A stretch of 64,000 nucleotides of DNA from an uncultured virus (IMG/VR IMGVR_UViG_3300020247_000249) (IMGVR_UViG_3300020247_000249); one strand, 5' to 3'; shown: positions 1 through 24,745, numbered from the stretch's first letter. Numbers and translations are program-made. Notes: generated from the letters alone by a model not told the origin.

Positions 1-2
1 CT

Positions 3-317
3 TATCGTTCAGATAGTGTTACTCCATTAGGATGTAATCAAGTGCTTATTGAATTTAGGGGATATGGACTACGCAAAGACACACCAGAAGAAAGACGCAC
101 ACGTATCAATCATCACAACAGCATATGGGGACCGTTTGGACGTAACCTACACGAAGACCTAATTGGTGTAGCAGGACAAGGAACCACAATGCGTGAAGGC
201 ACAGAAGCACGTAACATATTGCATGGTAGACATGAAAATGGAACAATTCATGATGAAGTTGGTATGCGCCATTACTACAGCGAATGGGGCAAGTACTTAG
301 ATATTAATCCTTATTAA
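3..317 (+). CDS. C-terminal part of a Rieske aromatic ring-hydroxylating oxygenase alpha subunit (5' truncated by window)
   Basis: Frame is open from the window start (YRSDSVTPLGCNQVLIEFRG...). WGPFGRNLHED and DEVGMRHYYSEW resemble the catalytic-domain C-terminus of ring-hydroxylating alpha subunits. Confidence 0.6.
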   Translation, partial: YRSDSVTPLGCNQVLIEFRGYGLRKDTPEERRTRINHHNSIWGPFGRNLHEDLIGVAGQGTTMREGTEARNILHGRHENGTIHDEVGMRHYYSEWGKYLDINPY

Positions 318-330
318 TTTCAAAAAAAGG

Positions 331-361
331 TTGACAAACCAATTAAATGGTAGTATAAATA
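331..361 (+). promoter_or_regulatory. Composite promoter: sigma70 TTGACA-N17-TATAAA overlapping T4-late-type TATAAATA, driving tmRNA/tRNA
   Basis: TTGACA 331-336, TATAAATA 354-361. Confidence 0.75.
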
Positions 362-365
362 TACA

Positions 366-757
366 TGTAACGTTGAAGCCAATCAACGACAGACAGGACC
401 GGGGGGCGGTACCCCGCGCCTCCACCATAAGCACATTTGGAGATACAGTGAAGACACGTATTAAAATGATTAGCGGCGATGAGTTTGATGCTCTAAGCAA
501 AAAGGCTAAAAATTTACTTCATTGGAGACCAGGTGAACGTAAGAAGATTAAGCGTGGTTATAACAAAAGACTTCGCAAGTGTGCTTATGATGGGGGCGAA
601 CTAGGATCGACTGATGTATGAGAGAACGTGGAGTTACCGGTAGGCGATGACCGTAAATCAAGCAACTTTATAGACGCAAACGATAATTTTGCTCTTGCAG
701 CCTAGTTAACTAGGTAACGGGGTTGGCAACTTACCTGGCAACAGAAAAGTTGCGCCT
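366..757 (+). ncRNA. ssrA: Circularly permuted (two-piece) tmRNA; tag (A)ANDNFALAA
   Basis: The 3' tRNA-like end (T arm, CGCCTCC-ACCA, ends 427) lies upstream of the 5' end GGGGGCG (592-598). The two pair with a G3:U alanine determinant. Tag frame GCA AAC GAT AAT TTT GCT CTT GCA GCC TAG at 676-705. Outer ends approximate. Confidence 0.92.
448..621 (+). CDS. Small basic protein (57 aa) encoded in the tmRNA intervening segment
   Basis: GGAGA SD at 439-443, GTG at 448, MKTRIKMISGDEFDALSKKAKNLLHWRPGERKKIKRGYNKRLRK... Confidence 0.6.
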   Translation: MKTRIKMISGDEFDALSKKAKNLLHWRPGERKKIKRGYNKRLRKCAYDGGELGSTDV

Positions 758-768
758 TTATTGACAAA

Positions 769-842
769 GGGTGAATGGTGTAGTGGTAACACGGCGGTCT
801 CCAAAACCGTAGCTTGAGGTTCGATTCCTTGTTCGCCTGCCA
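769..842 (+). tRNA. tRNA-Trp (CCA)
   Basis: Cloverleaf, anticodon arm GCGGT-CT-CCA-AA-ACCGT, GTTCGATTC T loop, encoded CCA end. Confidence 0.93.
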
Positions 843-863
843 ATAAACTTTATAAATAATGAC

Positions 864-1145
864 ATGAATAAAGAAGAATACGACGAAATAGTAAAAAGAA
901 TCAATACCTTAATTGATGAACAAGTTCAACCGGCAGTAGAGCAACACGGAGGCTTTATTAAGTTTGAAGACTTTGATCAGTCAACAGGTCGTGTAAGTGT
1001 TTTACTACAAGGATCGTGTTCTGGTTGTGCAAGTAGCACAATAACACTTAAGATGGGTGTAGAAAACATGCTGAAACATTACATTCCAGAAGTAACAGGC
1101 GTAGACGGAATGGATGACCCCAACTTTAATAATCCATATTATTAA
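864..1145 (+). CDS. NifU/NfuA C-terminal domain Fe-S carrier
   Basis: VQPAVEQHGG, LQGSCSGC (CxxC), TLKMGVENML. Confidence 0.92.
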   Translation: MNKEEYDEIVKRINTLIDEQVQPAVEQHGGFIKFEDFDQSTGRVSVLLQGSCSGCASSTITLKMGVENMLKHYIPEVTGVDGMDDPNFNNPYY

Positions 1146-1232
1146 AAATGCACTCAGATCTAGCAGACAGGTTGTTAAAATAAATTAAATAATATCTGTA
1201 ATACAATTATAACATAAAGGAACTAACACACT

Positions 1233-1811
1233 ATGAGAGAAGGTGTACAAATACCTAACGTGGTTTTTAAAACTAGAGTCCGAGATGAATCCATTGAAGG
1301 ACCGAACCCTTATCGTTGGCAAGATGTCAACGGCAGCGACTACTTCGCTGGAAAGAGAGTAGTATTATTCAGCTTACCAGGAGCGTTCACTCCAACATGT
1401 AGCACATACCAGCTACCAGGATTTGAAGAGAATTACAACAAGATTAAAGAAATGGGAGTAGATGAAATTTACTGCATTTCTGTTAATGACGCATTTGTTA
1501 TGAACAAATGGGCTAAAGACCAATGTGTAGAAAGAGTAAAGGTCATTCCAGATGGCAATGCACTGTTTACACAAATGATGGGAATGCTAGTCGATAAACG
1601 GCATTTAGGTTTTGGGCAACGTTCATGGCGATATGCGGCTGTCATTAATGACGGTGTAGTTGAAGCATGGTTTGAAGAGCCAGGCAAAAACTGCGATGGC
1701 GCCGATAGCGACCCTTATGGTGAAACAACACCTGAGAAAGTTATTGAATATCTAAGCAGCCAAACAGAAAAATTCACCTTTATTAAAGACATCAAAGGCA
1801 CTGAAGTTTAA
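1233..1811 (+). CDS. Peroxiredoxin (Prx5/redoxin family)
   Basis: FSLPGAFTPTCS, SVNDAFVM, GFGQRSWRYA. Confidence 0.95.
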   Translation: MREGVQIPNVVFKTRVRDESIEGPNPYRWQDVNGSDYFAGKRVVLFSLPGAFTPTCSTYQLPGFEENYNKIKEMGVDEIYCISVNDAFVMNKWAKDQCVERVKVIPDGNALFTQMMGMLVDKRHLGFGQRSWRYAAVINDGVVEAWFEEPGKNCDGADSDPYGETTPEKVIEYLSSQTEKFTFIKDIKGTEV

Positions 1812-1907
1812 AGAGCATATAAGTTTATCTATGTATTCTTTAAATAAAATCAGTGTTGGACAAAGGGGCGCATATCGCGTTCTTCAAAATTATAGGAAAT
1901 AATAAAA

Positions 1908-2531
1908 ATGAAAAAACTAATACTATCTTTTGCTTTCGCTGTGGCGTTAGCATCAACTGCTTATGCTGACAACTTCGATGATACCAGCATGAACATTAAC
2001 ATAACATCAGATAAAACTACTTTATCTGCAGGCACTGGTGCTAGTTATGACTTTGCTGATACAGCAAACGTTTATGGCATCAAGCACGACTTTGGTACTG
2101 TTTACGGCCAAGTCGAGTTTATTGACGATGATGTAAACGATGACTATCGTTTTACTGTTGGTAAACTTTATACAACTGCTGTAGCAGACCCCGTAACAGG
2201 TGAAGCACCACGTGTAACCTTTTATGCTGCTCCAGAAGTACACTATACTGTAGGCGATTCTTTTACTAAAGACGAGTTAAGAATTAGTCCATCAATTGGT
2301 GCTGCATTTGATGCAGGACTAGTAGTTCCTTATGCAGAACTAGGATATGACATTTCATCAGTAGAAGGTGATTTGTTTGACTTTTCTAGAGCAGACGCAT
2401 ATGCAGAACTAGGTGTTGCAGTTCCAGTAAGCGATAAAGCATCTGTACAAGTTGCTTTAATGCAAGATTTAGATTCAGACTTGAATTCAGTTGATAGAGA
2501 AATAGCGTTAACATTTAACGTAAACTTCTAA
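1908..2531 (+). CDS. Secreted outer-membrane beta-barrel-like protein
   Basis: Signal peptide ending AYA, alternating beta-strand pattern, C-terminal FNVNF. Confidence 0.65.
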   Translation: MKKLILSFAFAVALASTAYADNFDDTSMNINITSDKTTLSAGTGASYDFADTANVYGIKHDFGTVYGQVEFIDDDVNDDYRFTVGKLYTTAVADPVTGEAPRVTFYAAPEVHYTVGDSFTKDELRISPSIGAAFDAGLVVPYAELGYDISSVEGDLFDFSRADAYAELGVAVPVSDKASVQVALMQDLDSDLNSVDREIALTFNVNF

Positions 2532-2542
2532 TAAAACTATCC

Positions 2543-2578
2543 AAAAGGTGCCAATTCCAACATTTTGGCACCTTTTTT
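2543..2578 (+). terminator. Rho-independent terminator
   Basis: AAAAGGTGCCAA...TTGGCACCTTTTTT. Confidence 0.85.
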
Positions 2579-2579
2579 C

Positions 2580-2608
2580 TTGACCTTTGCTTCTAAAGGT
2601 GCTATAGT
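2580..2608 (+). promoter_or_regulatory. sigma70-type promoter
   Basis: TTGACC-N17-TATAGT with extended TG. Confidence 0.65.
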
Positions 2609-2621
2609 ATTACTATAACTA

Positions 2622-3281
2622 ATGAAGCAGAGGCATAAAATGAATTGGACAGGCATAAAGCGTAAGGCAATTATCACAGGTATTTCGGTAGCTGCTGTAG
2701 CATTTGCATTTGGTGTTGGTACATTTAATCCAAATGGTTTTGTAACAAGCGACTACACAAAGAAAATTGAGAACAAGTTCTTAAAAGAGGCAATCGCCCT
2801 CGGTATGCATGAACCTGATTTCGTGTATACAGATTCAAACTCATTCATGGACGCAGTAGGACAATGCGTTGACTTTATAAACTTTACAACTCCACGTGAT
2901 CAGCGTGTTCCTAGCTCTATTATTATTGCTATGGCCGGTATTGAAAGTGGTTGGGGTACTAGTAGGTTTACCAGAGACGGTAACAATCTTTTTGGTATAC
3001 GAACATGGGATCCTGATACACCACAGATGAAGCCGCTAGACTTACCAAACGCAGAGTTTGGTGTAAAGACTTATCCTACAAAATGTGCTAGTGTACAAGA
3101 TGCTATTAACATTCTTAATACACACCATGCATATGAAAACTTTCGTATTGAGCGTAAACGTCAAATTGCATTAGATATATGGGATTACGATCAATTAGCA
3201 TTTCATATTTCTCCTTGGAGTACTAATGAGAAGTATAGTAATATGATTGTAAACACTATTGCAAGTAAGGAGTTACCATAA
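2622..3281 (+). CDS. Glucosaminidase-domain (Bax/FlgJ-like) peptidoglycan hydrolase with N-terminal membrane anchor
   Basis: IAMAGIESGWGTSRF, GNNLFGI. Confidence 0.85.
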   Translation: MKQRHKMNWTGIKRKAIITGISVAAVAFAFGVGTFNPNGFVTSDYTKKIENKFLKEAIALGMHEPDFVYTDSNSFMDAVGQCVDFINFTTPRDQRVPSSIIIAMAGIESGWGTSRFTRDGNNLFGIRTWDPDTPQMKPLDLPNAEFGVKTYPTKCASVQDAINILNTHHAYENFRIERKRQIALDIWDYDQLAFHISPWSTNEKYSNMIVNTIASKELP

Positions 3282-3526
3282 TGAAAAGCAAATATGGACC
3301 TAGATACTTCAAGCCTGACTTTATGGATATGAAAGACCATTGGGCAGTTGGCACACAGTGGCCAGTAAAAGGTAGTCGTGGTGATGACTATACTGTTGAG
3401 TGGACATCGAAAGGCTTTACTTGTGATTGTATGGGTATGACAATGCATGGTAAATGTAAACACACTAGAGCAATTGCCGAACGTTGGCAACAAGCCTGTG
3501 ATCCTAACTTTGCACTAGGAGCCTAA
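3281..3526 (+). CDS. SWIM zinc-finger protein
   Basis: YTVE...FTCDC...CKH. Confidence 0.75.
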   Translation: MKSKYGPRYFKPDFMDMKDHWAVGTQWPVKGSRGDDYTVEWTSKGFTCDCMGMTMHGKCKHTRAIAERWQQACDPNFALGA

Positions 3527-3527
3527 T

Positions 3528-3986
3528 ATGACAATGCATTTAGCTCGTGGCTTAACCACATTGAACACAAAGAAACGTAAGAAGAAGAAACTAACAGACA
3601 AGAAGATTGAAGAATATACTGTGAAGTGGAGACAGCATAATAAAGCAATGCGTCGAAAGCATTTACACAGTCATCAGTTTGATACTGTTGAAGATTACAT
3701 TGCATATTGTAGAGGCGAGTACAAACCTAAGTCAACACCTGTTGTTGCTCCTTTACGTACTACTTCTACTCCTGTTGCTAGAGAGTCAGATAAAATTCCT
3801 AGTTACGTTTCTAAGAATACATTCGCACCATGCACTAAGAAAGAGCCGTTGCAGTATACAGGAGAACGTAGACTTGTAGGTATTGCTACAATGCACAAAA
3901 GTAATATGGTTCCTGTGTTCGCGGACGATGATGATAAGACAGGAAAGAAACAAGCGACAGAAATTGCACAAATGAGGCGGAACTAA
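3528..3986 (+). CDS. Basic phage hypothetical protein
   Basis: Tightly packed ORF; C-terminal GIATMHKSNMVPVF motif. Confidence 0.7.
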   Translation: MTMHLARGLTTLNTKKRKKKKLTDKKIEEYTVKWRQHNKAMRRKHLHSHQFDTVEDYIAYCRGEYKPKSTPVVAPLRTTSTPVARESDKIPSYVSKNTFAPCTKKEPLQYTGERRLVGIATMHKSNMVPVFADDDDKTGKKQATEIAQMRRN

Positions 3987-4026
3987 AGTACTATGTTTAG
4001 TATGAACAACAGTATCTAAATAAAGG

Positions 4027-4632
4027 ATGAACAGATTTATGCGATCATTAATTACATTTACAATACTAGCGTTTGTGGTAGTATCTACAGCGCAAAGCGG
4101 GCAACACCTTCAAGCATCAACACTGATGAATGATAAAGAATCAGTGTCAGTTGGAGAGCTGTATTCAAAAGATACACATCCACAAGAATACTGCTTGGCA
4201 CAAAACATTTACTACGAATCACGAGGAGATAATCTAGCAGGTAAAGCGGCTGTTAGTGATGTAGTTATGAACAGAGTAAAATCTACATACTATCCTAATA
4301 CAATTTGTGAAGTAGTTTATCAAGCACGTTGGAAGGAAAGTTGGAAAACTAAACAGTATCCAGACTTGCCAGATGATCAACGTGTTATGATACCTATTAG
4401 AAATCAATGTCAGTTTAGTTGGTTCTGTGACGGCAAGTCAGATGAGCCGCCAATTGGCGATGAATGGCGACAAGCACAGACTATTGCGTATCGCATGGTT
4501 AATTCAGATTACTTAATTGGTATTGCTGATGGCGCAACACACTACCATGCAACTTATGTCAACCCTAAATGGAACAAGGATATGCTACTAATCGGAAGAA
4601 TTGGTTTGCATATATTCTATGTGCAAAGGTAG
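4027..4632 (+). CDS. Cell wall hydrolase (SleB/Hydrolase_2)
   Basis: CLAQNIYYESRG, VMNRV, CQFSWFCDGK, GATHYHA. Confidence 0.92.
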   Translation: MNRFMRSLITFTILAFVVVSTAQSGQHLQASTLMNDKESVSVGELYSKDTHPQEYCLAQNIYYESRGDNLAGKAAVSDVVMNRVKSTYYPNTICEVVYQARWKESWKTKQYPDLPDDQRVMIPIRNQCQFSWFCDGKSDEPPIGDEWRQAQTIAYRMVNSDYLIGIADGATHYHATYVNPKWNKDMLLIGRIGLHIFYVQR

Positions 4633-4636
4633 TTAA

Positions 4637-4864
4637 CTGTCCGATTACATTGACTCATTAATTAAGAATGCAAAGTATCCGGCCTGTGTAGGATTATCAA
4701 GAGTAGGCTGGGTAACAACTGAAGTGTGGAACGATATGATTAGTCGTTCTCCATTACTGTATCGCTTTATTCCTTTAAAGTTTTTAGATTGGGATAGAGA
4801 CGGTGCAAAAATACACTGGCTATTTTGGAGAAAAAAGACTTCCAAAATAATAAAATATACTTGA
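4637..4864 (+). CDS. Possible CTG-start hypothetical protein (75 aa), absent from the ORF track
   Basis: Open frame filling the gap between genes (LSDYIDSLIKNAKYPACVG...WLFWRKK); AAGGT upstream. Confidence 0.4.
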   Translation: MSDYIDSLIKNAKYPACVGLSRVGWVTTEVWNDMISRSPLLYRFIPLKFLDWDRDGAKIHWLFWRKKTSKIIKYT

Positions 4865-4889
4865 CTTATGCAGTATAATTTAGTATACT
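4861..4889 (+). promoter_or_regulatory. sigma70-type promoter
   Basis: TTGACT-N17-TATACT. Confidence 0.7.
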
Positions 4890-4923
4890 GTAAGTACATT
4901 AACACACATACAGAGAGGCTGTT

Positions 4924-5418
4924 ATGAAAATGAAGGCAACAATGAAGGCATTGACTGTAGGCACACTGATACTCGGATTGGGTGCGTGTAGCTCAATGAA
5001 GACAATCGACGTTCGAGAAACGAAAGCAAATCCAAATTGGTACATGGATTGTGAACAAATTGGTTCAGAGGGTTTCTTGTTTTGGAAAGACGACTATGCT
5101 TATGCATGTGGCATGGGTGAAAGTAAGTTTGAACAAGCGTCAGAATCACAAGCGTATGCATTTGCTGTAAAAGGTTTTGCAGAACGTATTAATGGTACCG
5201 TTAACTCATCAACAACTGTAGATATTAAGAACAACAGTCGTGATACAAGAACTTTTGTAGAACACCTTGTTAAGAATACTACAATTAGAGAGCATCTTGA
5301 AGTTAAGAAGTATTCATATGAACTGGCAAGTACAGGTCACGTGCATACGTATGTAAGAATTAAGATGCCGCTGGAAACATTTGATCGTCTGATCGCTGAA
5401 GCGAAAGACCCAGCATAA
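4924..5418 (+). CDS. Lipoprotein (LPP20-like)
   Basis: Lipobox LGAC; GAGG SD. Confidence 0.7.
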   Translation: MKMKATMKALTVGTLILGLGACSSMKTIDVRETKANPNWYMDCEQIGSEGFLFWKDDYAYACGMGESKFEQASESQAYAFAVKGFAERINGTVNSSTTVDIKNNSRDTRTFVEHLVKNTTIREHLEVKKYSYELASTGHVHTYVRIKMPLETFDRLIAEAKDPA

Positions 5419-11548: not shown

Positions 11549-12097
11549 ATGAGCTTAAAAGAATTAACAAAAGAAAATCATACTAACGCAGAACGCCAAG
11601 AATTTGTAAAGGTTATGTTCTCTGGAAAAATTGATCCAGAGTTTTATGCTCTTTATTTGTGGAATCAATTTCCAGCCTATGAACTACTAGAGATAATGGC
11701 CCAACAACACGGCTTACTAGATGACGTACCTGAACTAATACGTTCAAAAAGAATTATGACTGACTTCTTAGAACTATGGAAAAAAGAAGACAGGCCACCT
11801 ACACTAAAAACTACTCACAAGTATGTAATGTATTTGAAAGAGATCATGAATGACCCTAATAGGTTAATGGCTCATGTTTATGTTAGACACATGGGAGACC
11901 TAAGCGGCGGACAGATGATTGCAAAACGTATACCAGGTAATGGTGAAATGTATAAGTTTGGAGATGTTGACATCAACGATTACAAAGATAAGATTAGAGC
12001 GAAGTGTAATGATAATATGGCAGACGAAGCAAAAGTTTGCTTTGACTTTGCTACTGAACTTTTCAAAGAGTTGATGGAGCATAAAGGTGACAGATAG
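11549..12097 (+). CDS. Heme oxygenase (biliverdin-producing)
   Basis: LKELTKENHTNAE, MAHVYVRHMGDLSGGQMI, EAKVCF. Confidence 0.93.
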   Translation: MSLKELTKENHTNAERQEFVKVMFSGKIDPEFYALYLWNQFPAYELLEIMAQQHGLLDDVPELIRSKRIMTDFLELWKKEDRPPTLKTTHKYVMYLKEIMNDPNRLMAHVYVRHMGDLSGGQMIAKRIPGNGEMYKFGDVDINDYKDKIRAKCNDNMADEAKVCFDFATELFKELMEHKGDR

Positions 12098-12785
12098 TGT
12101 TATATGGGACAGACTAATTGACTGTCAAAATGAGATTATCAAAATTTTTGATGACAAAGCAACAGAGTTCGAAGAGCCCGGACTTGATTACTTTAATAAA
12201 CCAGACGGTAGTTGGATTAACCGTGTTTGGCGTAACGACGATATTCGTAGGGCTCATATTGATGTTGTAGACGCTCGCGATACAAAAGGCCTTTGGATGA
12301 TGCATGTGTGCATTTTTCCAACATTAGATAACCCAGCACCTATTTACGGCTTTGATGTTATAGCAGGTAAGAAGAAAATGACTGGTGCATTTCATGATGT
12401 TAGTGCTAGTAGTGATCCTAATCATCCTATGATACAAGGTTACGCAGAAGCAGTAGAAGATTTTATTCCTAGCAAAAAACGTGAACTACCTGAATGGGCT
12501 CAGAACATTTTTAGTCCAAGCATGATTGCTGCCGGCAATGTAAGCACAGAAGAAGAAGCAGTTGCTATAATCGATCTTGCATTAGATAATTTACATACAT
12601 ATTTTGCTGAAGTAGGTCTTACTAAAGGTGAAGGCGATATTGCATTAGTACAAGCCTCACAAGATTATTACTGCCATAATCAGCAACAAAATCCACATAC
12701 TCCACGTACTATGAAGAGCCTAGGACTTAACGAAGCAGACGTAGACAAGTTTTGCACAGATATGTTATTTCCTAAACTTGGATAA
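12087..12785 (+). CDS. Ferredoxin-dependent bilin reductase (PcyA/PcyX-like)
   Basis: RRAHI, MMHVCIFP, PIYGFD, RELPEWAQNIFS, YCHNQQQNPHT; overlaps the heme oxygenase gene. Confidence 0.88.
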   Translation: MTDSVIWDRLIDCQNEIIKIFDDKATEFEEPGLDYFNKPDGSWINRVWRNDDIRRAHIDVVDARDTKGLWMMHVCIFPTLDNPAPIYGFDVIAGKKKMTGAFHDVSASSDPNHPMIQGYAEAVEDFIPSKKRELPEWAQNIFSPSMIAAGNVSTEEEAVAIIDLALDNLHTYFAEVGLTKGEGDIALVQASQDYYCHNQQQNPHTPRTMKSLGLNEADVDKFCTDMLFPKLG

Positions 12786-14298: not shown

Positions 14299-14754
14299 AT
14301 GAAAAATGTAATTTCTACAGCTATCATTCTGGGTTTACTGGCTACAGCACCTGCCCTTGCAGGCGATGAAGTCTTTAAATTTAAGAATCCATCATTTTCA
14401 GGTCAAGGGTACTCCAGCCATGTCTTGAGTATTGAACAATTACAGTTCACTCGTAAAAAAGATATTGAGGACAAGGCTGAATCAGATGCTGCGAGAGCAA
14501 AGCGTGAAGCAGAGTCTACTAACTTAGCGAAGTTTCTTAACAACGTTGAGAGTAGAATCTATGCGCAACTTTCTAAGCAATTGGTCGACGGTATGTTCGA
14601 TGATACTGGTGCTAACAGTGGCACAGCTGAAATCGAAGGTGCTATAATATACTGGGTAAAAGATACTACCACAGATACTATTAGCATCACCATTACAGAA
14701 GAAGATGGAACCGTTACGACAATTACTGTACCGTTGACAGGATTTGGATTTTAA
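14299..14754 (+). CDS. csgF: Curli assembly protein CsgF-like
   Basis: Signal peptide then FKFKNPSFSG; ESRIYAQLS; immediately upstream of csgG. Confidence 0.85.
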   Translation: MKNVISTAIILGLLATAPALAGDEVFKFKNPSFSGQGYSSHVLSIEQLQFTRKKDIEDKAESDAARAKREAESTNLAKFLNNVESRIYAQLSKQLVDGMFDDTGANSGTAEIEGAIIYWVKDTTTDTISITITEEDGTVTTITVPLTGFGF

Positions 14755-15788
14755 TGACAGGATTGAAAAAGCTAATTAGAAGTTTGTTATTTGTGGTCCT
14801 GGCTATAGCAATAACAGGTTGCGCGGCCACCTATACAAAGAAGGATTGGACACCACCCGTGAAAGCGGAAAGTCCATACCAAAGTGTATTGGAGACCGTG
14901 CCAGCTATCGATGGACCAAAAATAACAATTGCAATTTACAGTTTTCTAGACAAAACAGGGCAACGTAAGCCTAATGACAGTTTTAGTCAGCTCAGTAGTG
15001 CGGTTACTCAAGGTGCTGAGGTTTGGGTTATAAATGCTCTGAAAGAAGTGGGTGGAGGAAAGTGGTTCCAAGTTGTGGAACGAGTAGGCTTAGATAATCT
15101 AGTTAAAGAAAGACAGTTAATTAGATCAACTAGAGAAGTTTACGAAAACGATCCGACTGATTTAAAACCACTGCTCTTTGCGGGGCTGATATTAGAAGGT
15201 GGAGTTGTTGGCTACGATTCTAATATGGAGAGTGGGGGTGTTGGTGCTAGATATTTTGGCATTGGCGGTCAGACATCTTATAGAACAGACCAAGTTACTG
15301 TGGCGATGCGCATTATCAGTACACAAACAGGAGAAGTACTCCTAAGCGTGGCAACTGAAAAGAAAATTGCAAGTTATAGTAGCGGAGGCGATGTATTTCG
15401 TTTCTTAGATTTAGGCACTAAGGCACTTGAAATTGAAGTAGGCGCAGCAGTAAATGAGCCAACCAACTATGCAGTTCGTACAGCAATTGAAGCAGCAATA
15501 GTTGAGTTGATAATGAAAGGTGAAGAGAAGAAACTTTGGAAGTTCGTGAGGGAAGATGAACTAGAGAGTATGCCTATACCGGAGTCGCGTCCGACTATAC
15601 ACCAGAGACATGATGCTATTATTAAATTACCAGAAGATGAATTTATTAAGCAGTATCCAGGTGTAACAGGTTACTATTGTGACGCAGACAACATGTGTTG
15701 GCATAACGATCCATTAATTAAAAAGTTGGCTGATGAAATAGACGGTCAAGGGAGCGATAATGAAGATAAAGACAATAGTAGCAAGTAG
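14754..15788 (+). CDS. csgG: Curli secretion channel CsgG/HfaB family lipoprotein
   Basis: Lipobox ITGC; YSFLDKTGQRKP, SAVTQG, WFQVVERVGLDNLVKERQLIR, EGGVVGYD. Confidence 0.93.
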   Translation: MTGLKKLIRSLLFVVLAIAITGCAATYTKKDWTPPVKAESPYQSVLETVPAIDGPKITIAIYSFLDKTGQRKPNDSFSQLSSAVTQGAEVWVINALKEVGGGKWFQVVERVGLDNLVKERQLIRSTREVYENDPTDLKPLLFAGLILEGGVVGYDSNMESGGVGARYFGIGGQTSYRTDQVTVAMRIISTQTGEVLLSVATEKKIASYSSGGDVFRFLDLGTKALEIEVGAAVNEPTNYAVRTAIEAAIVELIMKGEEKKLWKFVREDELESMPIPESRPTIHQRHDAIIKLPEDEFIKQYPGVTGYYCDADNMCWHNDPLIKKLADEIDGQGSDNEDKDNSSK

Positions 15789-16527
15789 TCTTTTTATATT
15801 AAGTTTAGGGCTGATATTCCCAGCGTATGCGAATGACATATACATACAGCAGTCTGGTAATGACTTAGACTTAGATATAACACAAGACGGAACAAATAAC
15901 GTATTAGGTAATAATACAACAGGAGTTACGTTACAAGGTAATGACATGACGTTTTCTGTAGTACAAACAGGTGACTCTAACATCATTGAAACTACCATTA
16001 AAGGTAATACCTATACCGGTAACATTAACTTAACTGGTGATAGCAGTACAGTTGACTTAGACTGTGATGCAGGTGGAGCAGGTAACTGTGAAACAGTATC
16101 ATTAAGCATTGATGCAGTAGGTGATTCATTTGACATTACAGCAACAATTGGCGGATCAGGAGATGCACAGAACTTTGTGGGTACAATTGATCTAGATAAC
16201 AATGGTAATGCAGATACTCTAACTTTTACACTTAATGCTAAAAATGCTGATTTAAACTTTGACATGGGTAACGATGGCTCAACAGCACTAACAGGTGTTG
16301 GCGCTGGCGGTACTACATCATCAAGTTCATCAGTTGAAAGTGGTGTTGCTAACACAGTTGCAATTACACAATCAGGCGCTGGCGATGCTAACGGTCACAG
16401 TATGACAGTTGATATGAAAGGTGGTGGTTCGATTGCGAACATTACACAAACAGGTGTTGAAGATAAAGTGTTGAGTCTTACTACTGTAGGAAACGATGCT
16501 AAAATAGATATTACGCAAACGGATTAA
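15760..16527 (+). CDS. Secreted curlin-like repeat protein
   Basis: Signal peptide; IYIQQSG, ITQDGTNN, VQTGDSN repeats; G/N/D/T-rich. Confidence 0.75.
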   Translation: MKIKTIVASSLFILSLGLIFPAYANDIYIQQSGNDLDLDITQDGTNNVLGNNTTGVTLQGNDMTFSVVQTGDSNIIETTIKGNTYTGNINLTGDSSTVDLDCDAGGAGNCETVSLSIDAVGDSFDITATIGGSGDAQNFVGTIDLDNNGNADTLTFTLNAKNADLNFDMGNDGSTALTGVGAGGTTSSSSSVESGVANTVAITQSGAGDANGHSMTVDMKGGGSIANITQTGVEDKVLSLTTVGNDAKIDITQTD

Positions 16528-16531
16528 CTAT

Positions 16532-17665
16532 ATGATCCGGCTGCTGGACAAAATGCTGCTCCGTGCAGGTATGATGGTTTGTCTAACTATCACCGTACCC
16601 GCGATGGCAAATGTTGCTTCTATCGGAAACGTAACCCAGCAGGTTGGTAATACTATTATCGAAAGACAAGCAGGAGAAAAACTAACTTCTGAAAAAGGTA
16701 GTACTATAGTAAGTTACGATACCGTTCGTACAGGTCAGGGTAAAACTGCTATAGAATTTGTGGATGAAACTAGAGTTGATGTAACACAAAACAGTAAACT
16801 AGTTATTGATGAATTTGTATATGATCCTAATACTTCAAAAGGTAAACTTGCCCTCAAAGCATCTTTTGGAACTATTAGATATGCATCAGGACAGATTGCA
16901 AAGAACAGTAGGCAAGATATAAAAATCACTACACCAACCGCTACTATTGGTGTACGCGGTACTGACTTTACAATGACTGTTGATGAAACAGGAAGTTCAA
17001 CAATTATTCTTTTACCAAGTTGTTCGGCAGTAGGAACAAAGCGTATCTGTGTTGTAGGAGAAATATCAGTAGAATCAGATGCTGGTCAGGTTATTCTAAA
17101 CAAAGCATTTCAAGCAACAGTAGTAGATGTACCAGAGACAAGTCCTTTAGATCCTATTATAATTGACATCAATGAATCACTTATTGATAACCTGCTTATT
17201 ATCCGTAGGCCTAAAGAAGTCGAGTACGAGATAGAAAGAAAAAGAGCAGTAGAACTAGCAGACTTCTTAGGATTTGACTTCCTAGAGTACGACGGATTAG
17301 ATGTAAACCAACTTGATGAGGATCCGGAAATGTGGCAAACAGAATTAGATGCAAACTATTTGGATCAAAACTTCCTTGCTAATGTACTTGATCAACTTAA
17401 TCAAATGTTAGCAAAGGTACTAGGTGGACAACTATCTAAAACAAAAGCAAAAGAAATATACGGAAAAGATCCTGTTACAGGTATCGAGTTATACAATCAA
17501 AATCCTAACTGGGTGTTTAGACGTGATAGCGGAACAGGTATGCAAGTAGAATTAACATTAGATCAACAAAACGGATATAACATAAATTTACAACAATCAG
17601 ATTTTGAAACCAGAGACTACTCACTTGGAGATGGCAGTAATGATATTGACATTATTCAGAAATAG
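16532..17665 (+). CDS. FecR-domain periplasmic protein
   Basis: DTVRTG, SKLVIDEFVYDP, ITTPTATIGVRGTDF. Confidence 0.88.
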   Translation: MIRLLDKMLLRAGMMVCLTITVPAMANVASIGNVTQQVGNTIIERQAGEKLTSEKGSTIVSYDTVRTGQGKTAIEFVDETRVDVTQNSKLVIDEFVYDPNTSKGKLALKASFGTIRYASGQIAKNSRQDIKITTPTATIGVRGTDFTMTVDETGSSTIILLPSCSAVGTKRICVVGEISVESDAGQVILNKAFQATVVDVPETSPLDPIIIDINESLIDNLLIIRRPKEVEYEIERKRAVELADFLGFDFLEYDGLDVNQLDEDPEMWQTELDANYLDQNFLANVLDQLNQMLAKVLGGQLSKTKAKEIYGKDPVTGIELYNQNPNWVFRRDSGTGMQVELTLDQQNGYNINLQQSDFETRDYSLGDGSNDIDIIQK

Positions 17666-19082
17666 TTTATTTTTCCTTTTTCTATTGTTCGCTGTAACTC
17701 CAGCCTTTGCAAATGATGTTATTATATATTACAGCACAGGTGGAACAAACACAAGTTCACACTACAATCATTTAAAAAGTGAACTTGAAGATTTAGGATT
17801 TACAGTTACAGGAAGTACAAGTGGCACAGTAAGTTCAAGTGATCTATCAGGCAAAGAACTTGTAATTGATATAGCAGGAACTTCAAACTGTGGCAGTACG
17901 TGTAAAACAAACTATGAAAGTTTTATAGGCAACGGAGGACACGTAGTTATTCTTGCACCCAACGGAGCAACCAATAGAATAGGTAACATTGAATCGTTGG
18001 TTGAAAGTAAATTAAGTGTAGGAAGTATGTCAATAGCAGGTAGTTGTAATACCTGTTGGGCTTCATATGCAGTAGGCGATTATGCTTCAAGCACATCAAG
18101 TGAAAACACATTACCAGGACCAGACAAATTGTTTACAGCAAGTGGCGGTACAGCAATGGCCAAAAATAGCAGTGCCAGTAGTTGGAACACTTGGTATAAT
18201 TGGGAGTATGGTAGTAATGGTGGATCAATCACAGTTTCATTTGGTTATGGACAGTTACTATCAACACATCAATATAGTAATAACATGGTGGACTTCCTAA
18301 CTCGTTCAATGGTTCAAGCAGGATTATACAGTGTATCATCATATACATCAAGCATAAGCACAGCACAGACTAATCAGATTACAGCATCAAGAGCAGTAAC
18401 ACACAATGGTAGTGGCATATATATTAACCAGGTTGGTAATGATAACGAGCTTGATATAGTTCAAGACGGAAGTGATAACCTTGTAGCAGGTGTTGGTTCA
18501 ACATCTAGCAACATAGTAAACGCTGACATCATTGGTAATAACAATGATACAACATTAACACAAAGAGGTGACAACAATGTAATACTGTTTGATGTTACAG
18601 GAGATACTAATACAACAACTGTAAGTCAAGGTGGATCATCTGGAGCAGATGATAATAGGCTTGAGTTTGATGTTAATGGCGACTCTAACATATTAAGTAT
18701 TACACAAAATCATAACGACGGTATAGGAAACAACGGACACTTTCTTGCAATAGACTTAGACGGAGATACTAATAACATTTTATCAAGTCAACTTAATGAC
18801 GGAGATAAAAAAGCATTCCTTAGTGTTCAAGGTGACGACAATGATATCGATTTATATCAGCAAGGATCAGGATCACACTATGCAGAAATTGCAGTAGGTA
18901 GCGATCAAACTGTTGGTATTACACAAGATGGCACAGGCAATCACAATGCAAGTGTTAGCATGACAGGTCACAGTGCAACACTTGACCTTACACAAGATAG
19001 TTCAAACAATCAAGTTTATTCAATAAACCAAAATTGCGCAAACGCAAATGGTTGTGGTACAACTACAGTAACACAAAACTAA
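17640..19082 (+). CDS. Large secreted protein with C-terminal curlin-like repeats
   Basis: Signal peptide ending AFA; repeats INQVGNDN, VQDGSDN, TQRGDNN, VQGDDN, TQDGTGNH; start reassigned to 17640 after GGAG. Confidence 0.78.
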   Translation: MILTLFRNSLFFLFLLFAVTPAFANDVIIYYSTGGTNTSSHYNHLKSELEDLGFTVTGSTSGTVSSSDLSGKELVIDIAGTSNCGSTCKTNYESFIGNGGHVVILAPNGATNRIGNIESLVESKLSVGSMSIAGSCNTCWASYAVGDYASSTSSENTLPGPDKLFTASGGTAMAKNSSASSWNTWYNWEYGSNGGSITVSFGYGQLLSTHQYSNNMVDFLTRSMVQAGLYSVSSYTSSISTAQTNQITASRAVTHNGSGIYINQVGNDNELDIVQDGSDNLVAGVGSTSSNIVNADIIGNNNDTTLTQRGDNNVILFDVTGDTNTTTVSQGGSSGADDNRLEFDVNGDSNILSITQNHNDGIGNNGHFLAIDLDGDTNNILSSQLNDGDKKAFLSVQGDDNDIDLYQQGSGSHYAEIAVGSDQTVGITQDGTGNHNASVSMTGHSATLDLTQDSSNNQVYSINQNCANANGCGTTTVTQN

Positions 19083-20142: not shown

Positions 20143-22203
20143 ATGAAACTGTCAAAGATTATAACACATTGGTCTACAGCACTTCTAACCTTAGCGGTTA
20201 TTAGTATATTAGGGTTCAACGATCCCTATGTAAAACAGACTTTAAGACTCAAATCTTTTGATCTTATTCAAAGTTATGACACAGTAGAACCACTATCCAA
20301 CGACATTGCTATATTAGAAATAGACGAAGCATCTATAGAAAAGTACGGACAATGGCCATGGAAGCGTGATGTATTAGCAGGTATTATTGAAAACTTAAGA
20401 GCGCATGGTGCTGGCGTTATTGTTATGCCTATCCTATTTTCTGAGAATGATAGACTAGGTGGAGATACTGAACTAGCACAGATGTTGCTAAACAATGGTG
20501 TTGTTATCGCACAAACAGGAACAACACAAACAAATAAAAATGCAGTACCAAGAGGTGTTGCTAAAATAGGTGATCCTATGCCTTGGTTATTTGAATGGCC
20601 GGGCATGTTAGGTCCTATACCTTTACTAGGTGAAAACGCAGCAGGCGTTGGAGTAATTAATACTGCACCTGAAATAGATGGTGTTGTAAGACGCTTACCA
20701 TTGCTAATGCGTGTAGGTGACGAAGTATATCCAAGTATTACTATGGAAACAATACGTGTTGCTGTAGGTGATCCTAGTTATCAAGTTAAAGCAGGCGAGG
20801 GCGGTATTATTGCTATGCGTGTGCCTGCGTATCAAACTATTCAAACAGATCCAAATGGTAGAATTTGGTTGCGTTGGAACAAAGACTTTGATGTATACAG
20901 TGCATCAGAAGAAGATTTCTTTTGGGGAATGGAAGGCAAAATTGTAATTATTGGTATTACAGCAGAAGGACTTGCACCAGTTATTGCTACTCCAAACGGA
21001 GAACAATACAGTTATGTAATGACTGCAACAGCATTACAGACTATCGTAAATGGCGATAACATTGTACGTTTTGATTATGCTACATTTGTAGAGTATGCTG
21101 CTAGTATCGTAATTGGGCTTATTCTTATAATTGCGGCGGTTTTAGCACCATATTACGTAGTGGGTGCATTGGTACTTATTATGTACGCAACGTGCTTGTA
21201 CGGCGCTTATACGCTGTTTAAAGGGCACTTACAGCTATGGGATGTGAGCTGGATACTGCTAGTAGGCACAGCAGTAGGTTTCCATGCTACATTTAACCGT
21301 TTTGTAGTAGAATTCTTTGAAAAACAAAAGATTAAGAAGCAATTTGCAGGGTATGCATCACCAACAGTAGTACGTATGCTACAAGAAAATCCTGCACTTA
21401 TCAAAGACGGTATGAAGAAAGAGGTCAGTATTCTATTTTCAGACTTGCGTGGGTTTACACCTTTGGGCGAATCATTTGGCGATGACGTGAAAGGCTTAAC
21501 CAAAATTATGAATGGCTATATGGATGCTATTACACAACCTATATTAGACAGCGATGGTATGGTAATTAAGTACATTGGTGATGCAAGTATGCATGTACAC
21601 AATGCACCAATTGAAGATCCAGAACATCCAAAGACCGCAGTGCAATGTGGATTAGATATGCTTAAGGCAGTGGAGAAATTTAATGAACAAATTACAAATG
21701 AAGGACGTCCTCCCGTTGGTATGGGTGCCGGTATTAATACTGGCCTTGGTTACCTTGGCGAAATGGGTAGCACCGCAAGGCACTCTTATGACGTTCTTGG
21801 CGACTCTGTAAGTACAGCAGCAAGAATAGAATCTAAGTGTAAAGAATATGGTTGCTTATTACTAGTAGGAGATGCAACATATCAACAAACTAAAGACGAC
21901 TTCTTCTACTTAAAAGTAGACGACCTAGCAGTTAAAGGTAAAACAGTTGGTATTGGTATTTGGACAGTACTAGACAATCCTAAACCAGCATGGCGTACAG
22001 CACAACGCCATCATCAAGAAATGCATGAGTTGTATCAAAAACAAAAGTTTGATGAAGCAATATGGATTTGTGAAAAACTAATGAGACACTTTGATGCTAA
22101 GATGGAAGGATATTATACTATGTGGATTGAACGTTGTGAATATATGAAAACACAAAAGTTACCTAAAGATTGGAATGGAGTGTTCATTGCAACAACAAAA
22201 TGA
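20143..22203 (+). CDS. CHASE2-domain class III adenylate cyclase
   Basis: CHASE2 (IDEASIEKYGQWPWKR, DGVVRR), 3 TM helices, FSDLRGFT, KYIGDA, GINTG, YDVLGD...AARIE, VKGK. Confidence 0.95.
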   Translation: MKLSKIITHWSTALLTLAVISILGFNDPYVKQTLRLKSFDLIQSYDTVEPLSNDIAILEIDEASIEKYGQWPWKRDVLAGIIENLRAHGAGVIVMPILFSENDRLGGDTELAQMLLNNGVVIAQTGTTQTNKNAVPRGVAKIGDPMPWLFEWPGMLGPIPLLGENAAGVGVINTAPEIDGVVRRLPLLMRVGDEVYPSITMETIRVAVGDPSYQVKAGEGGIIAMRVPAYQTIQTDPNGRIWLRWNKDFDVYSASEEDFFWGMEGKIVIIGITAEGLAPVIATPNGEQYSYVMTATALQTIVNGDNIVRFDYATFVEYAASIVIGLILIIAAVLAPYYVVGALVLIMYATCLYGAYTLFKGHLQLWDVSWILLVGTAVGFHATFNRFVVEFFEKQKIKKQFAGYASPTVVRMLQENPALIKDGMKKEVSILFSDLRGFTPLGESFGDDVKGLTKIMNGYMDAITQPILDSDGMVIKYIGDASMHVHNAPIEDPEHPKTAVQCGLDMLKAVEKFNEQITNEGRPPVGMGAGINTGLGYLGEMGSTARHSYDVLGDSVSTAARIESKCKEYGCLLLVGDATYQQTKDDFFYLKVDDLAVKGKTVGIGIWTVLDNPKPAWRTAQRHHQEMHELYQKQKFDEAIWICEKLMRHFDAKMEGYYTMWIERCEYMKTQKLPKDWNGVFIATTK

Positions 22204-24181: not shown

Positions 24182-24745
24182 ATGCCAGCAAAGTACGAGA
24201 ATTGGACAGCCAGTGATGCAATAGACAAGAGTCTGCACGATAATGACATTCATTATCTAAGTGGAGATATTGCTAATGACAACGTCAGTCAAACTATTAA
24301 GTGGATTGTTTCTGCCAATTTAAACAAGAAGCCAAAGAAAACACTTACCTTATATGTAAACACATATGGTGGAGACCTATACGAAGCGTTTGCACTTATT
24401 GATGTTATGAAACAAAGTTATCATCATATAAGAACAATAGGTGTTGGTGCAATTATGAGTGCAGGATTTTTAATTTTTGCAAGTGGTAAGCAAGGCGAAA
24501 GGTATATAGGAAAGAATACAGGTATAATGAATCATCAGCATAGCGATACTATGGACGCTAAGATGCACGACATGAAAGCAGCAATGCATGAGAATCAAAA
24601 CTGCGAACAACGTGCATATCAAGTTTTACGAGAAGCGACTGGTTATACTTTAGCACAGGTTAAAAAGTATTTTGACAGTCCGAGTGATCAGTACTTCACC
24701 GCAAAAGATCTGATCAAGCTCAATATTGCGGATCACATTTTATAG
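24182..24745 (+). CDS. clpP: ClpP-family protease subunit
   Basis: LYVNTYGGDL, GAIMSAG (Ser), IMNHQ (His), SDQYFTA (Asp). Confidence 0.88.
   Translation: MPAKYENWTASDAIDKSLHDNDIHYLSGDIANDNVSQTIKWIVSANLNKKPKKTLTLYVNTYGGDLYEAFALIDVMKQSYHHIRTIGVGAIMSAGFLIFASGKQGERYIGKNTGIMNHQHSDTMDAKMHDMKAAMHENQNCEQRAYQVLREATGYTLAQVKKYFDSPSDQYFTAKDLIKLNIADHIL

Follow-up and report, generated by a model that had tools for sequence, protein, structure and literature searches.

Permuted tmRNA transcripts are cut into two pieces by tRNA-processing enzymes (PMC11915505), and such two-piece tmRNAs are known in marine myophages, e.g. in the OM43 phage Melnitz and in pelagimyophages (PMC9004378). In the available portion of the Melnitz paper (PMC9004378) we found no discussion of the spacer that separates the two pieces. 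Similarly, the spacer contents mentioned in the accessible part of a 2025 tmRNA database paper are one tRNA gene and one repetitive element only, and no report of a protein gene in a tmRNA spacer was found in the literature searched, some of it available as excerpts. The spacers of tmRNA genes have so far been treated as discarded filler. At the locus described here, a single transcript would act first as mRNA and later be processed into a stable RNA.

The window, i.e. the whole 64,000-nt stretch of DNA analysed here (IMG/VR IMGVR_UViG_3300020247_000249), comes from an uncultured marine phage. Its tmRNA gene shares the order of the pieces, the tRNA-like domain, the encoded CCA and a tag ending in LAA with the two-piece tmRNAs of Alphaproteobacteria and marine myophages (Caulobacter type), but its spacer has 164 nt and is filled by a conserved gene, whereas the longest alphaproteobacterial spacers (73-133 nt) contain no convincing gene. 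The nearest precedent is offered by the intervening sequences of 23S rRNA with an S23p ORF in Coxiella and Leptospira (PMC4990558), which have in common with the window a stem-closed, excised segment with a small ORF that is optional and apparently mobile. The window differs from them in its host RNA (tmRNA), in a protein unrelated to S23p, in the use of one slot for many genes, and in an ORF that crosses a processing site. The 23S rRNA intervening sequences are excised by RNase III, whereas the tmRNA spacer would be cut out by tRNA-processing enzymes.

Three further systems invite comparison. ArfA and BrfA are alternative ribosome-rescue factors made from non-stop mRNAs (PMC10107115), and as in their case a small basic protein in the window has a message that would lose its stop codon through RNA processing and become a tmRNA substrate, a likeness of geometry only. 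The differences are the lack of sequence similarity in our searches, the existence of free-standing family members with normal stops, and another processing enzyme and RNA context. Group I introns with homing-endonuclease genes, as found in intron-form tmRNA (PMC11915505), likewise nest a protein gene in a removed part of a tmRNA and are patchy among close relatives. In contrast to these, no ribozyme was found in positions 1-5000 of the window, the insertion lies in the permutation spacer rather than in the T-loop, and the product has no nuclease domain. In tRNA-punctuated transcripts (mitochondrial mRNAs, the phage T4 tRNA region) RNase P and the 3' processing of flanking tRNA-like structures determine where an mRNA ends, and some mitochondrial mRNAs end without a complete stop codon; unlike in those, the message in the window appears to sit inside one permuted tRNA-like domain.

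Our best explanation, which we hold with a probability of roughly 0.8, is that the stem-closed spacer of this tmRNA serves as a slot, which a small accessory gene fills at 448-621. Against it speak the GTG start and the partly paired Shine-Dalgarno (SD) sequence of this gene, as well as a mechanism of exchange that we infer for a cassette encoding neither a recombinase nor an endonuclease.

A two-piece tmRNA gene with a stem-closed spacer

ARAGORN called a permuted tmRNA at 333-796 with the tag ANDNFALAA followed by a stop codon. Both Rfam covariance models of two-piece tmRNAs (RF01849 and RF04321) were matched end to end with scores above their gathering cut-offs over the full model, alpha_tmRNA at 314-756 (118.7 bits, cut-off 50) and tmRNA_permuted at 367-705 (116.2 bits, cut-off 47), and in both alignments the segment 3' of the CCA stands out as a long insertion. 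The pieces are in permuted order: the acceptor piece, which ends in CCA, precedes the one containing the 5' end and the tag frame. By these models, 333-796 is a phage-borne, alpha-type two-piece tmRNA gene. The features of the locus are as follows.

331-359, plus strand: putative promoter-like site just upstream of the tmRNA, TTGACA (331-336), 17 nt, TATAAA (354-359); read by eye
367-427, plus strand: acceptor (3') piece with the T-arm, the 3' strand of the acceptor stem and the encoded CCA at 425-427; Rfam, ARAGORN
427-442, plus strand: 5' arm of the closing helix, overlapping the SD; sequence reading, folding
428-591, plus strand: spacer (intervening segment) of 164 nt, not in the mature tmRNA; insertion relative to both Rfam models
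439-443, plus strand: SD-like GGAGA, separated from the start codon by 4 nt, part of it paired within the closing helix; sequence reading, folding
448-621, plus strand: 57-codon gene of the PHROG 16066 family, GTG start at 448-450, TGA stop at 619-621; translation, homologues
572-588, plus strand: 3' arm of the closing helix, also coding for the ORF residues ..RKCAY; sequence reading, folding
591-592, plus strand: expected RNase P site at the mature 5' end of the coding piece; predicted from the Rfam and ARAGORN positions
592-756, plus strand: coding (5') piece with the tag frame at 676-705 (ANDNFALAA and stop); sequence reading, ARAGORN, Rfam
769-842, plus strand: tRNA-Trp (CCA anticodon) directly downstream of the tmRNA; ARAGORN, Rfam tRNA 58.4 bits

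The promoter-like site was missed by a consensus scan because that scan demands a T at position 6 of the -10 hexamer. As the CCA end lies at 425-427 and the mature 5' end GGGGGCGAA begins at 592, the spacer comprises 428-591, its absence from the mature RNA being taken from the tmRNA models. The tRNA-Trp gene at 769-842 is probably co-transcribed with the tmRNA. No intron family or ribozyme was found in an Rfam E-value scan of positions 1-5000.

The spacer is closed by a stem in which ATAAGCACATTTG (427-439) pairs with CAAGTGTGCTTAT (576-588) over 13 bp, including one T436-G579 wobble. A preliminary description of this DNA had placed the spacer and its 13-bp stem at these positions, and all of its coordinates hold. 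RNA folding adds three pairs across a bulge and extends the helix to 426-442 / 572-590, and the fold is more stable than that of dinucleotide shuffles (z = -3.2 for 425-595 and -3.6 for 362-760). The helix is kept in relatives with differing sequences: of the 64 distinct related spacers among the matches listed that measure at least 40 nt, 62 have a closing helix of at least 8 bp, compared to 149 of 1280 controls with a shuffled 3' arm. With its presence or absence among tmRNAs 97-100% identical to each other, the spacer is a stem-closed optional segment of a stable-RNA gene, as in the intervening sequences of other stable RNAs. Around free-standing copies of the gene family described below, a bracketing helix was not more frequent than expected by chance (23/44 vs 81/176 shuffles).

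The spacer gene and its protein family

The SD (GGAGA), the GTG start, a Lys/Arg-rich ORF and a stop codon 30 nt inside the coding piece had also been claimed previously, and all of them are present. The stop (619-621) lies 30 nt past the mature 5' end at 592, which places the last 30 nt of the ORF within the mature tmRNA, and the expected RNase P site coincides with a codon boundary of the ORF (between GAT and GGG). K and R make up 16 of the 57 residues of the product, and a tblastn search for a paralogue within the 64-kb window matched only the ORF itself.

This product matches PHROG 16066 (E = 2.6e-5), a family with unannotated function and the pattern GDE[YF]DAL...W..G..KK[IL]KR.YNKR.RK, in which D11, E12, D14, W26, G29, K32, K35, R41 and R43 are invariant across 38 aligned members. 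A protein-database search returned 50 matches, 49 of them at E <= 7.3e-13. The query and 44 matches were aligned in 45 rows, with six near-duplicates left out (P0012, P0030, P0033, P0034, P0036, P0037). In 14 rows an N-terminal extension corresponds to the translated acceptor arm, and in 42 of the 45 the sequence continues as ..R[LVF]R[KR]-C-x-x-[DV]-G, which is the read-through of the closing stem into the 5' end of the tmRNA.

A scan of viral contigs gave 403 pattern matches, from which 250 relatives were confirmed and 80 kept. Spacer-borne copies, recognizable by their position behind a ..TCCACCA end, account for 14 of these 80 (L028-L039, L046, L054), so that the search of other phage tmRNA spacers suggested beforehand did recover the family, with starts of either GGAGA plus GTG or GGAAA plus ATG. 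In L028, L030-L032, L038/L039 and L237 the gene lies within a tmRNA called by ARAGORN, and five different tag peptides occur among these loci. The other 66 copies are free-standing, about 48-66 codons long, and end with a stop of their own 6-22 residues after the NKR.RK motif. Their neighbours encode DNA polymerase A, PhoH, terminase, DnaB, ThyX (three loci), a methyltransferase and a minor capsid protein, and no conserved neighbourhood was found among them. Free-standing copies directly follow thyX in L077, L097 and L098, and lie within or beside phage tRNA gene arrays in L071/L075, L078 and L067. The spacer-borne copy of L038/L039 is diverged (60% identity) and has its SD, AAGGAG, in the closing helix itself, right after the CCA.

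In bacteria the family is rare. A bacterial collection of 185,579 species representatives contained only 13 family loci, one of them spacer-borne on a 2.5-kb contig. In phage GenBank records, blastn matched only the tRNA-Trp and short tmRNA pieces, and tblastn with the ORF gave weak mycobacteriophage matches (best E = 6e-3). The nearest viral record, a 46.9-kb fragment (G001), lacks the tmRNA-ORF locus.

The ORF had been proposed to encode a protein, and its coding conservation, seen in the 250 confirmed relatives, is in agreement with this. Compared to 13 diverged copies, including the spacer-borne L046, L054 and L038, the window shows a pS of 0.61-1.03 and a pN of 0.20-0.29; with synonymous sites saturated and replacement sites not, the ORF is, by this measure, under purifying selection. 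The dN/dS comparison put forward in the preliminary description thus gave an answer for diverged copies, while the eight near-identical 164-nt copies were uninformative at their low divergence (pairwise dN/dS 0.21-2.45; variable columns by codon position 5/7/9). One might still regard the frame as open by chance, or the spacer as a structured non-coding insert conserved for RNA reasons, given a short ORF in A-rich sequence, the extra fold stability (z = -3.2) and the uninformative dN/dS within the closest clade. We consider this extremely improbable, as hundreds of homologues, including free-standing ones in unrelated contexts, keep their residues while synonymous sites are saturated, and the closing helix alone explains the extra fold stability. 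On comparative grounds, 448-621 is a genuine protein-coding gene of a marine-phage family that is free-standing in most loci examined.

Separate histories of cassette and tmRNA

The spacer of the window is 88-98% identical to those of L029-L036, whereas the acceptor pieces of these loci are 57-83% and their coding pieces 10-55% identical to those of the window, and their flanks cannot be aligned. Conversely, the tmRNA pieces of L007, L008 and L016 are 97-100% identical to those of the window, but they carry spacers of 45, 68 and 106 nt that show no relation to that of the window; in L007, even the upstream flank is 93% identical. Contigs from one seawater library also show the same flanks joined over other fillers. 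Counting the five different tag peptides around the gene as well, the ancestry of the cassette is, by these alignments, decoupled from that of the surrounding tmRNA. Cassettes would probably be exchanged by recombination in short conserved flanks during co-infection, with ..TCCACCA-TAAGCACA and TGTGCTTATGAT-GGGG.CGAA.TAGGATCGAC as candidate sites.

The association of gene and tmRNA is also loose at the level of genomes. No family copy was found in two complete genomes of phages with a tmRNA (165 and 160 kb), nor in three incomplete records. Conversely, two records with a free-standing copy, one complete and the other 97% complete, have no permuted tmRNA, while a single fragment carries both a tmRNA and a free-standing copy about 40 kb apart. 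Judging from these genomes, the link between gene and tmRNA is facultative.

The spacer as a slot for unrelated small genes

Spacers were gathered from viral contigs by RNA patterns anchored on the acceptor stem, and the resulting frequencies are rough since the patterns require exact matches and were counted among the matches listed. On this basis, a spacer was obtained for 116 of 188 sources, giving 91 distinct spacers of 5-499 nt among the matches listed. The protein-independent set consists of the 83 distinct spacers found by RNA patterns only (again among the matches listed), and the share of spacers in which one ORF covers at least 80% of the length changed with spacer size, as given here for the matches listed.

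Spacers below 60 nt: sense 1/32, antisense 2/32
Spacers of 60-99 nt: sense 5/24, antisense 6/24
Spacers of 100-139 nt: sense 4/9, antisense 1/9
Spacers of at least 140 nt: sense 16/18, antisense 1/18

Shuffled spacers of at least 140 nt reached a mean ORF cover of 0.40, and an SD-like motif precedes 13 of the 16 sense ORFs in the longest class among the matches listed. These ORFs are mutually unrelated and form at least six multi-member families in addition to singletons, e.g. a family with the pattern YDGY..RLWGN..GFEENY (L005, L012, L112), one with WISW..FQWG..NGNPYK (L115, L148, L179), and two families of membrane peptides (L163/L167 and L159/L184). In the first of these, L012 and L005 differ by a pS of 0.75 and a pN of 0.23, which indicates that a second spacer family is also under selection. 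In L005 and L012 the conserved TTATGAT supplies the TGA stop of the ORF, so that only one base separates it from the mature 5' end, whereas the ORF of their relative L112 reads 13 nt into the tmRNA. The longest spacer of the survey (L154, IMG/VR, 499 nt) holds a singleton ORF of 120 codons with hydrophobic stretches behind a GGAG motif.

In the related phages surveyed, the spacer is thus a slot that holds either unrelated small genes or short non-coding fillers. A permuted tmRNA was present in 148 of 151 alphaproteobacterial genomes (a tally that includes the unpublished G053, counted here only), with spans of 181-343 nt, and the spacers of 73-133 nt mentioned above as lacking a convincing gene are the six longest of this sample. 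Spacer genes are phage-specific within the sample. As a recombination slot, the spacer would allow marine phages to trade small genes, including those for basic proteins and membrane peptides. Small phage genes of this kind will be overlooked wherever RNA genes are masked before gene calling.

Proposed expression and processing

The ssrA promoter would drive the gene within the pre-tmRNA, and translation would take place mostly while the precursor is nascent or still unprocessed, with the helix not yet shut over the SD by the 3' arm. As this arm follows about 130 nt downstream of the SD region, initiation might be easiest on the nascent chain, and a ribosome trailing the polymerase could terminate at 619-621 and release the full-length product ending in ..KCAYDGGELGSTDV (the ..GGELGSTDV form). 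Cleavage by RNase P between 591 and 592 and a cut after the CCA at 427 would then yield a stem-closed spacer RNA of 164 nt and the two tmRNA pieces. This spacer RNA would end in ..TAT GAT (..KCAYD), and since the stop codon lies 30 nt past the RNase P site, a ribosome on it would reach the 3' end without terminating and become a target of rescue and tagging. The non-stop outcome would be a consequence of joining cassette and slot, of which a regulatory use is possible.

Two contigs assembled from RNA libraries of two studies bridge both processing sites, namely a 293-nt metatranscriptome contig that spans 399-691 with 0 differences (X1) and a 485-nt contig from an oligo-dT library that lies on 407-753 with 7 differences (X3); both possibly stem from contaminating DNA and show neither RNA ends nor levels. 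Stretches of the window without cover by RNA-library contigs are not evidence of absence. The locus offers a natural system for the competition between translation and tRNA-type processing on one RNA. With an ORF that runs across the RNase P site, it also makes a possible self-reporting non-stop message accessible to direct tests.

The overlap of the ORF with the 3' arm (572-588) and with the 5'-most 30 nt of the mature tmRNA, to which the acceptor stem belongs, could also be taken to mean that translation gates tmRNA maturation. A ribosome on 448-621 would melt both the 3' arm and the acceptor stem on its 5' side (592-598). Folding and processing of the tRNA-like domain could then proceed only while no ribosome translates the ORF, tying the output of mature tmRNA to translational load. 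Many spacer genes end before the acceptor stem, though, and many tmRNAs of the same lineages have short non-coding spacers, so that the tmRNA evidently needs no such gate, and we regard this scenario as very unlikely.

Protein function and the read-through junction

AlphaFold2 with the alignment modelled the product with two helices, a short one at 10-16 and a long basic one at 30-48, at a pLDDT of 78.9. No Pfam family, ArfA family and S23p included, matched the protein of the window at E cut-offs of 0.01 and 10, the Pfam search gave no nuclease domain in the 57-residue product, and no rescue-factor family appeared among the weak Pfam matches of the 38 members at E up to 10. A profile search of 177,635 PDB sequences at E <= 10 had BM2 as its sole match (E = 0.049), which was judged a chance match. 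Thus, neither the Pfam nor the PDB-sequence profile searches detected sequence similarity to ArfA, BrfA or SmpB. Structure searches have to be read in the light of the model, which with two helices and 57 residues carries little information: Foldseek gave no PDB match at E <= 0.001, and VIA-align gave 672 chains at Z >= 2, with a highest Z of 3.5. Ties in the latter search included sigma region 4-like helices and were taken as non-specific. In the ESM Atlas, only clusters of hypothetical proteins were matched.

The preliminary description went further and suggested a feedback loop like that of ArfA, with the protein as a candidate ribosome/RNA-binding or backup rescue factor. Spelled out as a loop of the ArfA/BrfA type, RNase P would create a non-stop message, its product would be tagged by the phage tmRNA and degraded, and the protein would accumulate only when trans-translation is saturated and act on ribosomes. 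The geometry behind this idea is right, i.e. the excised spacer would be a stop-less message because the stop lies beyond the expected RNase P site. Read-through is found at all 14 spacer-borne loci, in three types of junction (that of the window, another frame in L046/L054 and another stem in L038), as well as in 42/45 aligned proteins. The loop might draw further support from the predicted long basic helix, from the ClpP-family protease encoded in the window (24182-24742), and from the conserved core, which ends at ..NKRLRK in the 38 aligned members, for which reason a product cut at ..CAYD would retain all of it. However, the conserved 3' arm (TTATGAT) can be read without a stop in two frames out of three, so that the three junction types are unremarkable, with a chance probability of about 0.3. 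Moreover, the matches listed include 19 spacers with an ORF and a length of at least 140 nt, of which 12 have ORFs that stop inside the spacer and 7 read through, and the 66 free-standing homologues have ordinary stops. The searches for ArfA-like families among the 38 members and the one chance match of the PDB-sequence profile also speak against a feedback, as do the two complete tmRNA phages without the gene and the complete or near-complete gene-bearing phages without a permuted tmRNA.

The comparative data do not favour a designed feedback junction, and a read-through that is selected or regulatory is not supported. The claim of a backup rescue factor in particular finds no backing, since no sequence similarity or informative fold match to ArfA, BrfA or a ribosome factor was detected and since gene and phage tmRNA each occur without the other. 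We consider the feedback loop unlikely. The related view that the junction is a designed sensor is similarly doubtful; the product would then be either full-length or tagged with ANDNFALAA and passed to ClpP, reporting the speed of tmRNA maturation and the load on trans-translation, and the protein would act on ribosomes or on tmRNA-SmpB. If true, this would represent an ArfA/BrfA-style circuit built into the gene of the rescue RNA itself.

Other genes of the phage

The window encodes several further functions. Directly downstream of the tmRNA and tRNA-Trp genes lie genes for a NifU-like protein and a redoxin/peroxiredoxin (864-1811, plus strand). A heme oxygenase and ferredoxin-dependent bilin reductase pair and a CHASE2-adenylate/guanylate cyclase are encoded on the plus strand at 11549-12782 and 20143-22200. 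CsgG (E = 4e-50) and a curlin-repeat protein are located at 14754-19079 (plus strand), and CsgG and curlin genes have been reported for Melnitz and pelagimyophages (PMC9004378). The ClpP-family protease (plus strand; Pfam CLP_protease, E = 9e-26) could form a phage-borne tag-and-degrade pair with the tmRNA. Cell-wall hydrolases and an Mtd-like tail protein are encoded as well. Finally, the region 36416-60303 contains, on both strands and around a strand switch, 11 radical-SAM ORFs (PF04055), one with a SPASM domain, together with an NAD-dependent epimerase/dehydratase, and may represent a modification or peptide-maturation island.
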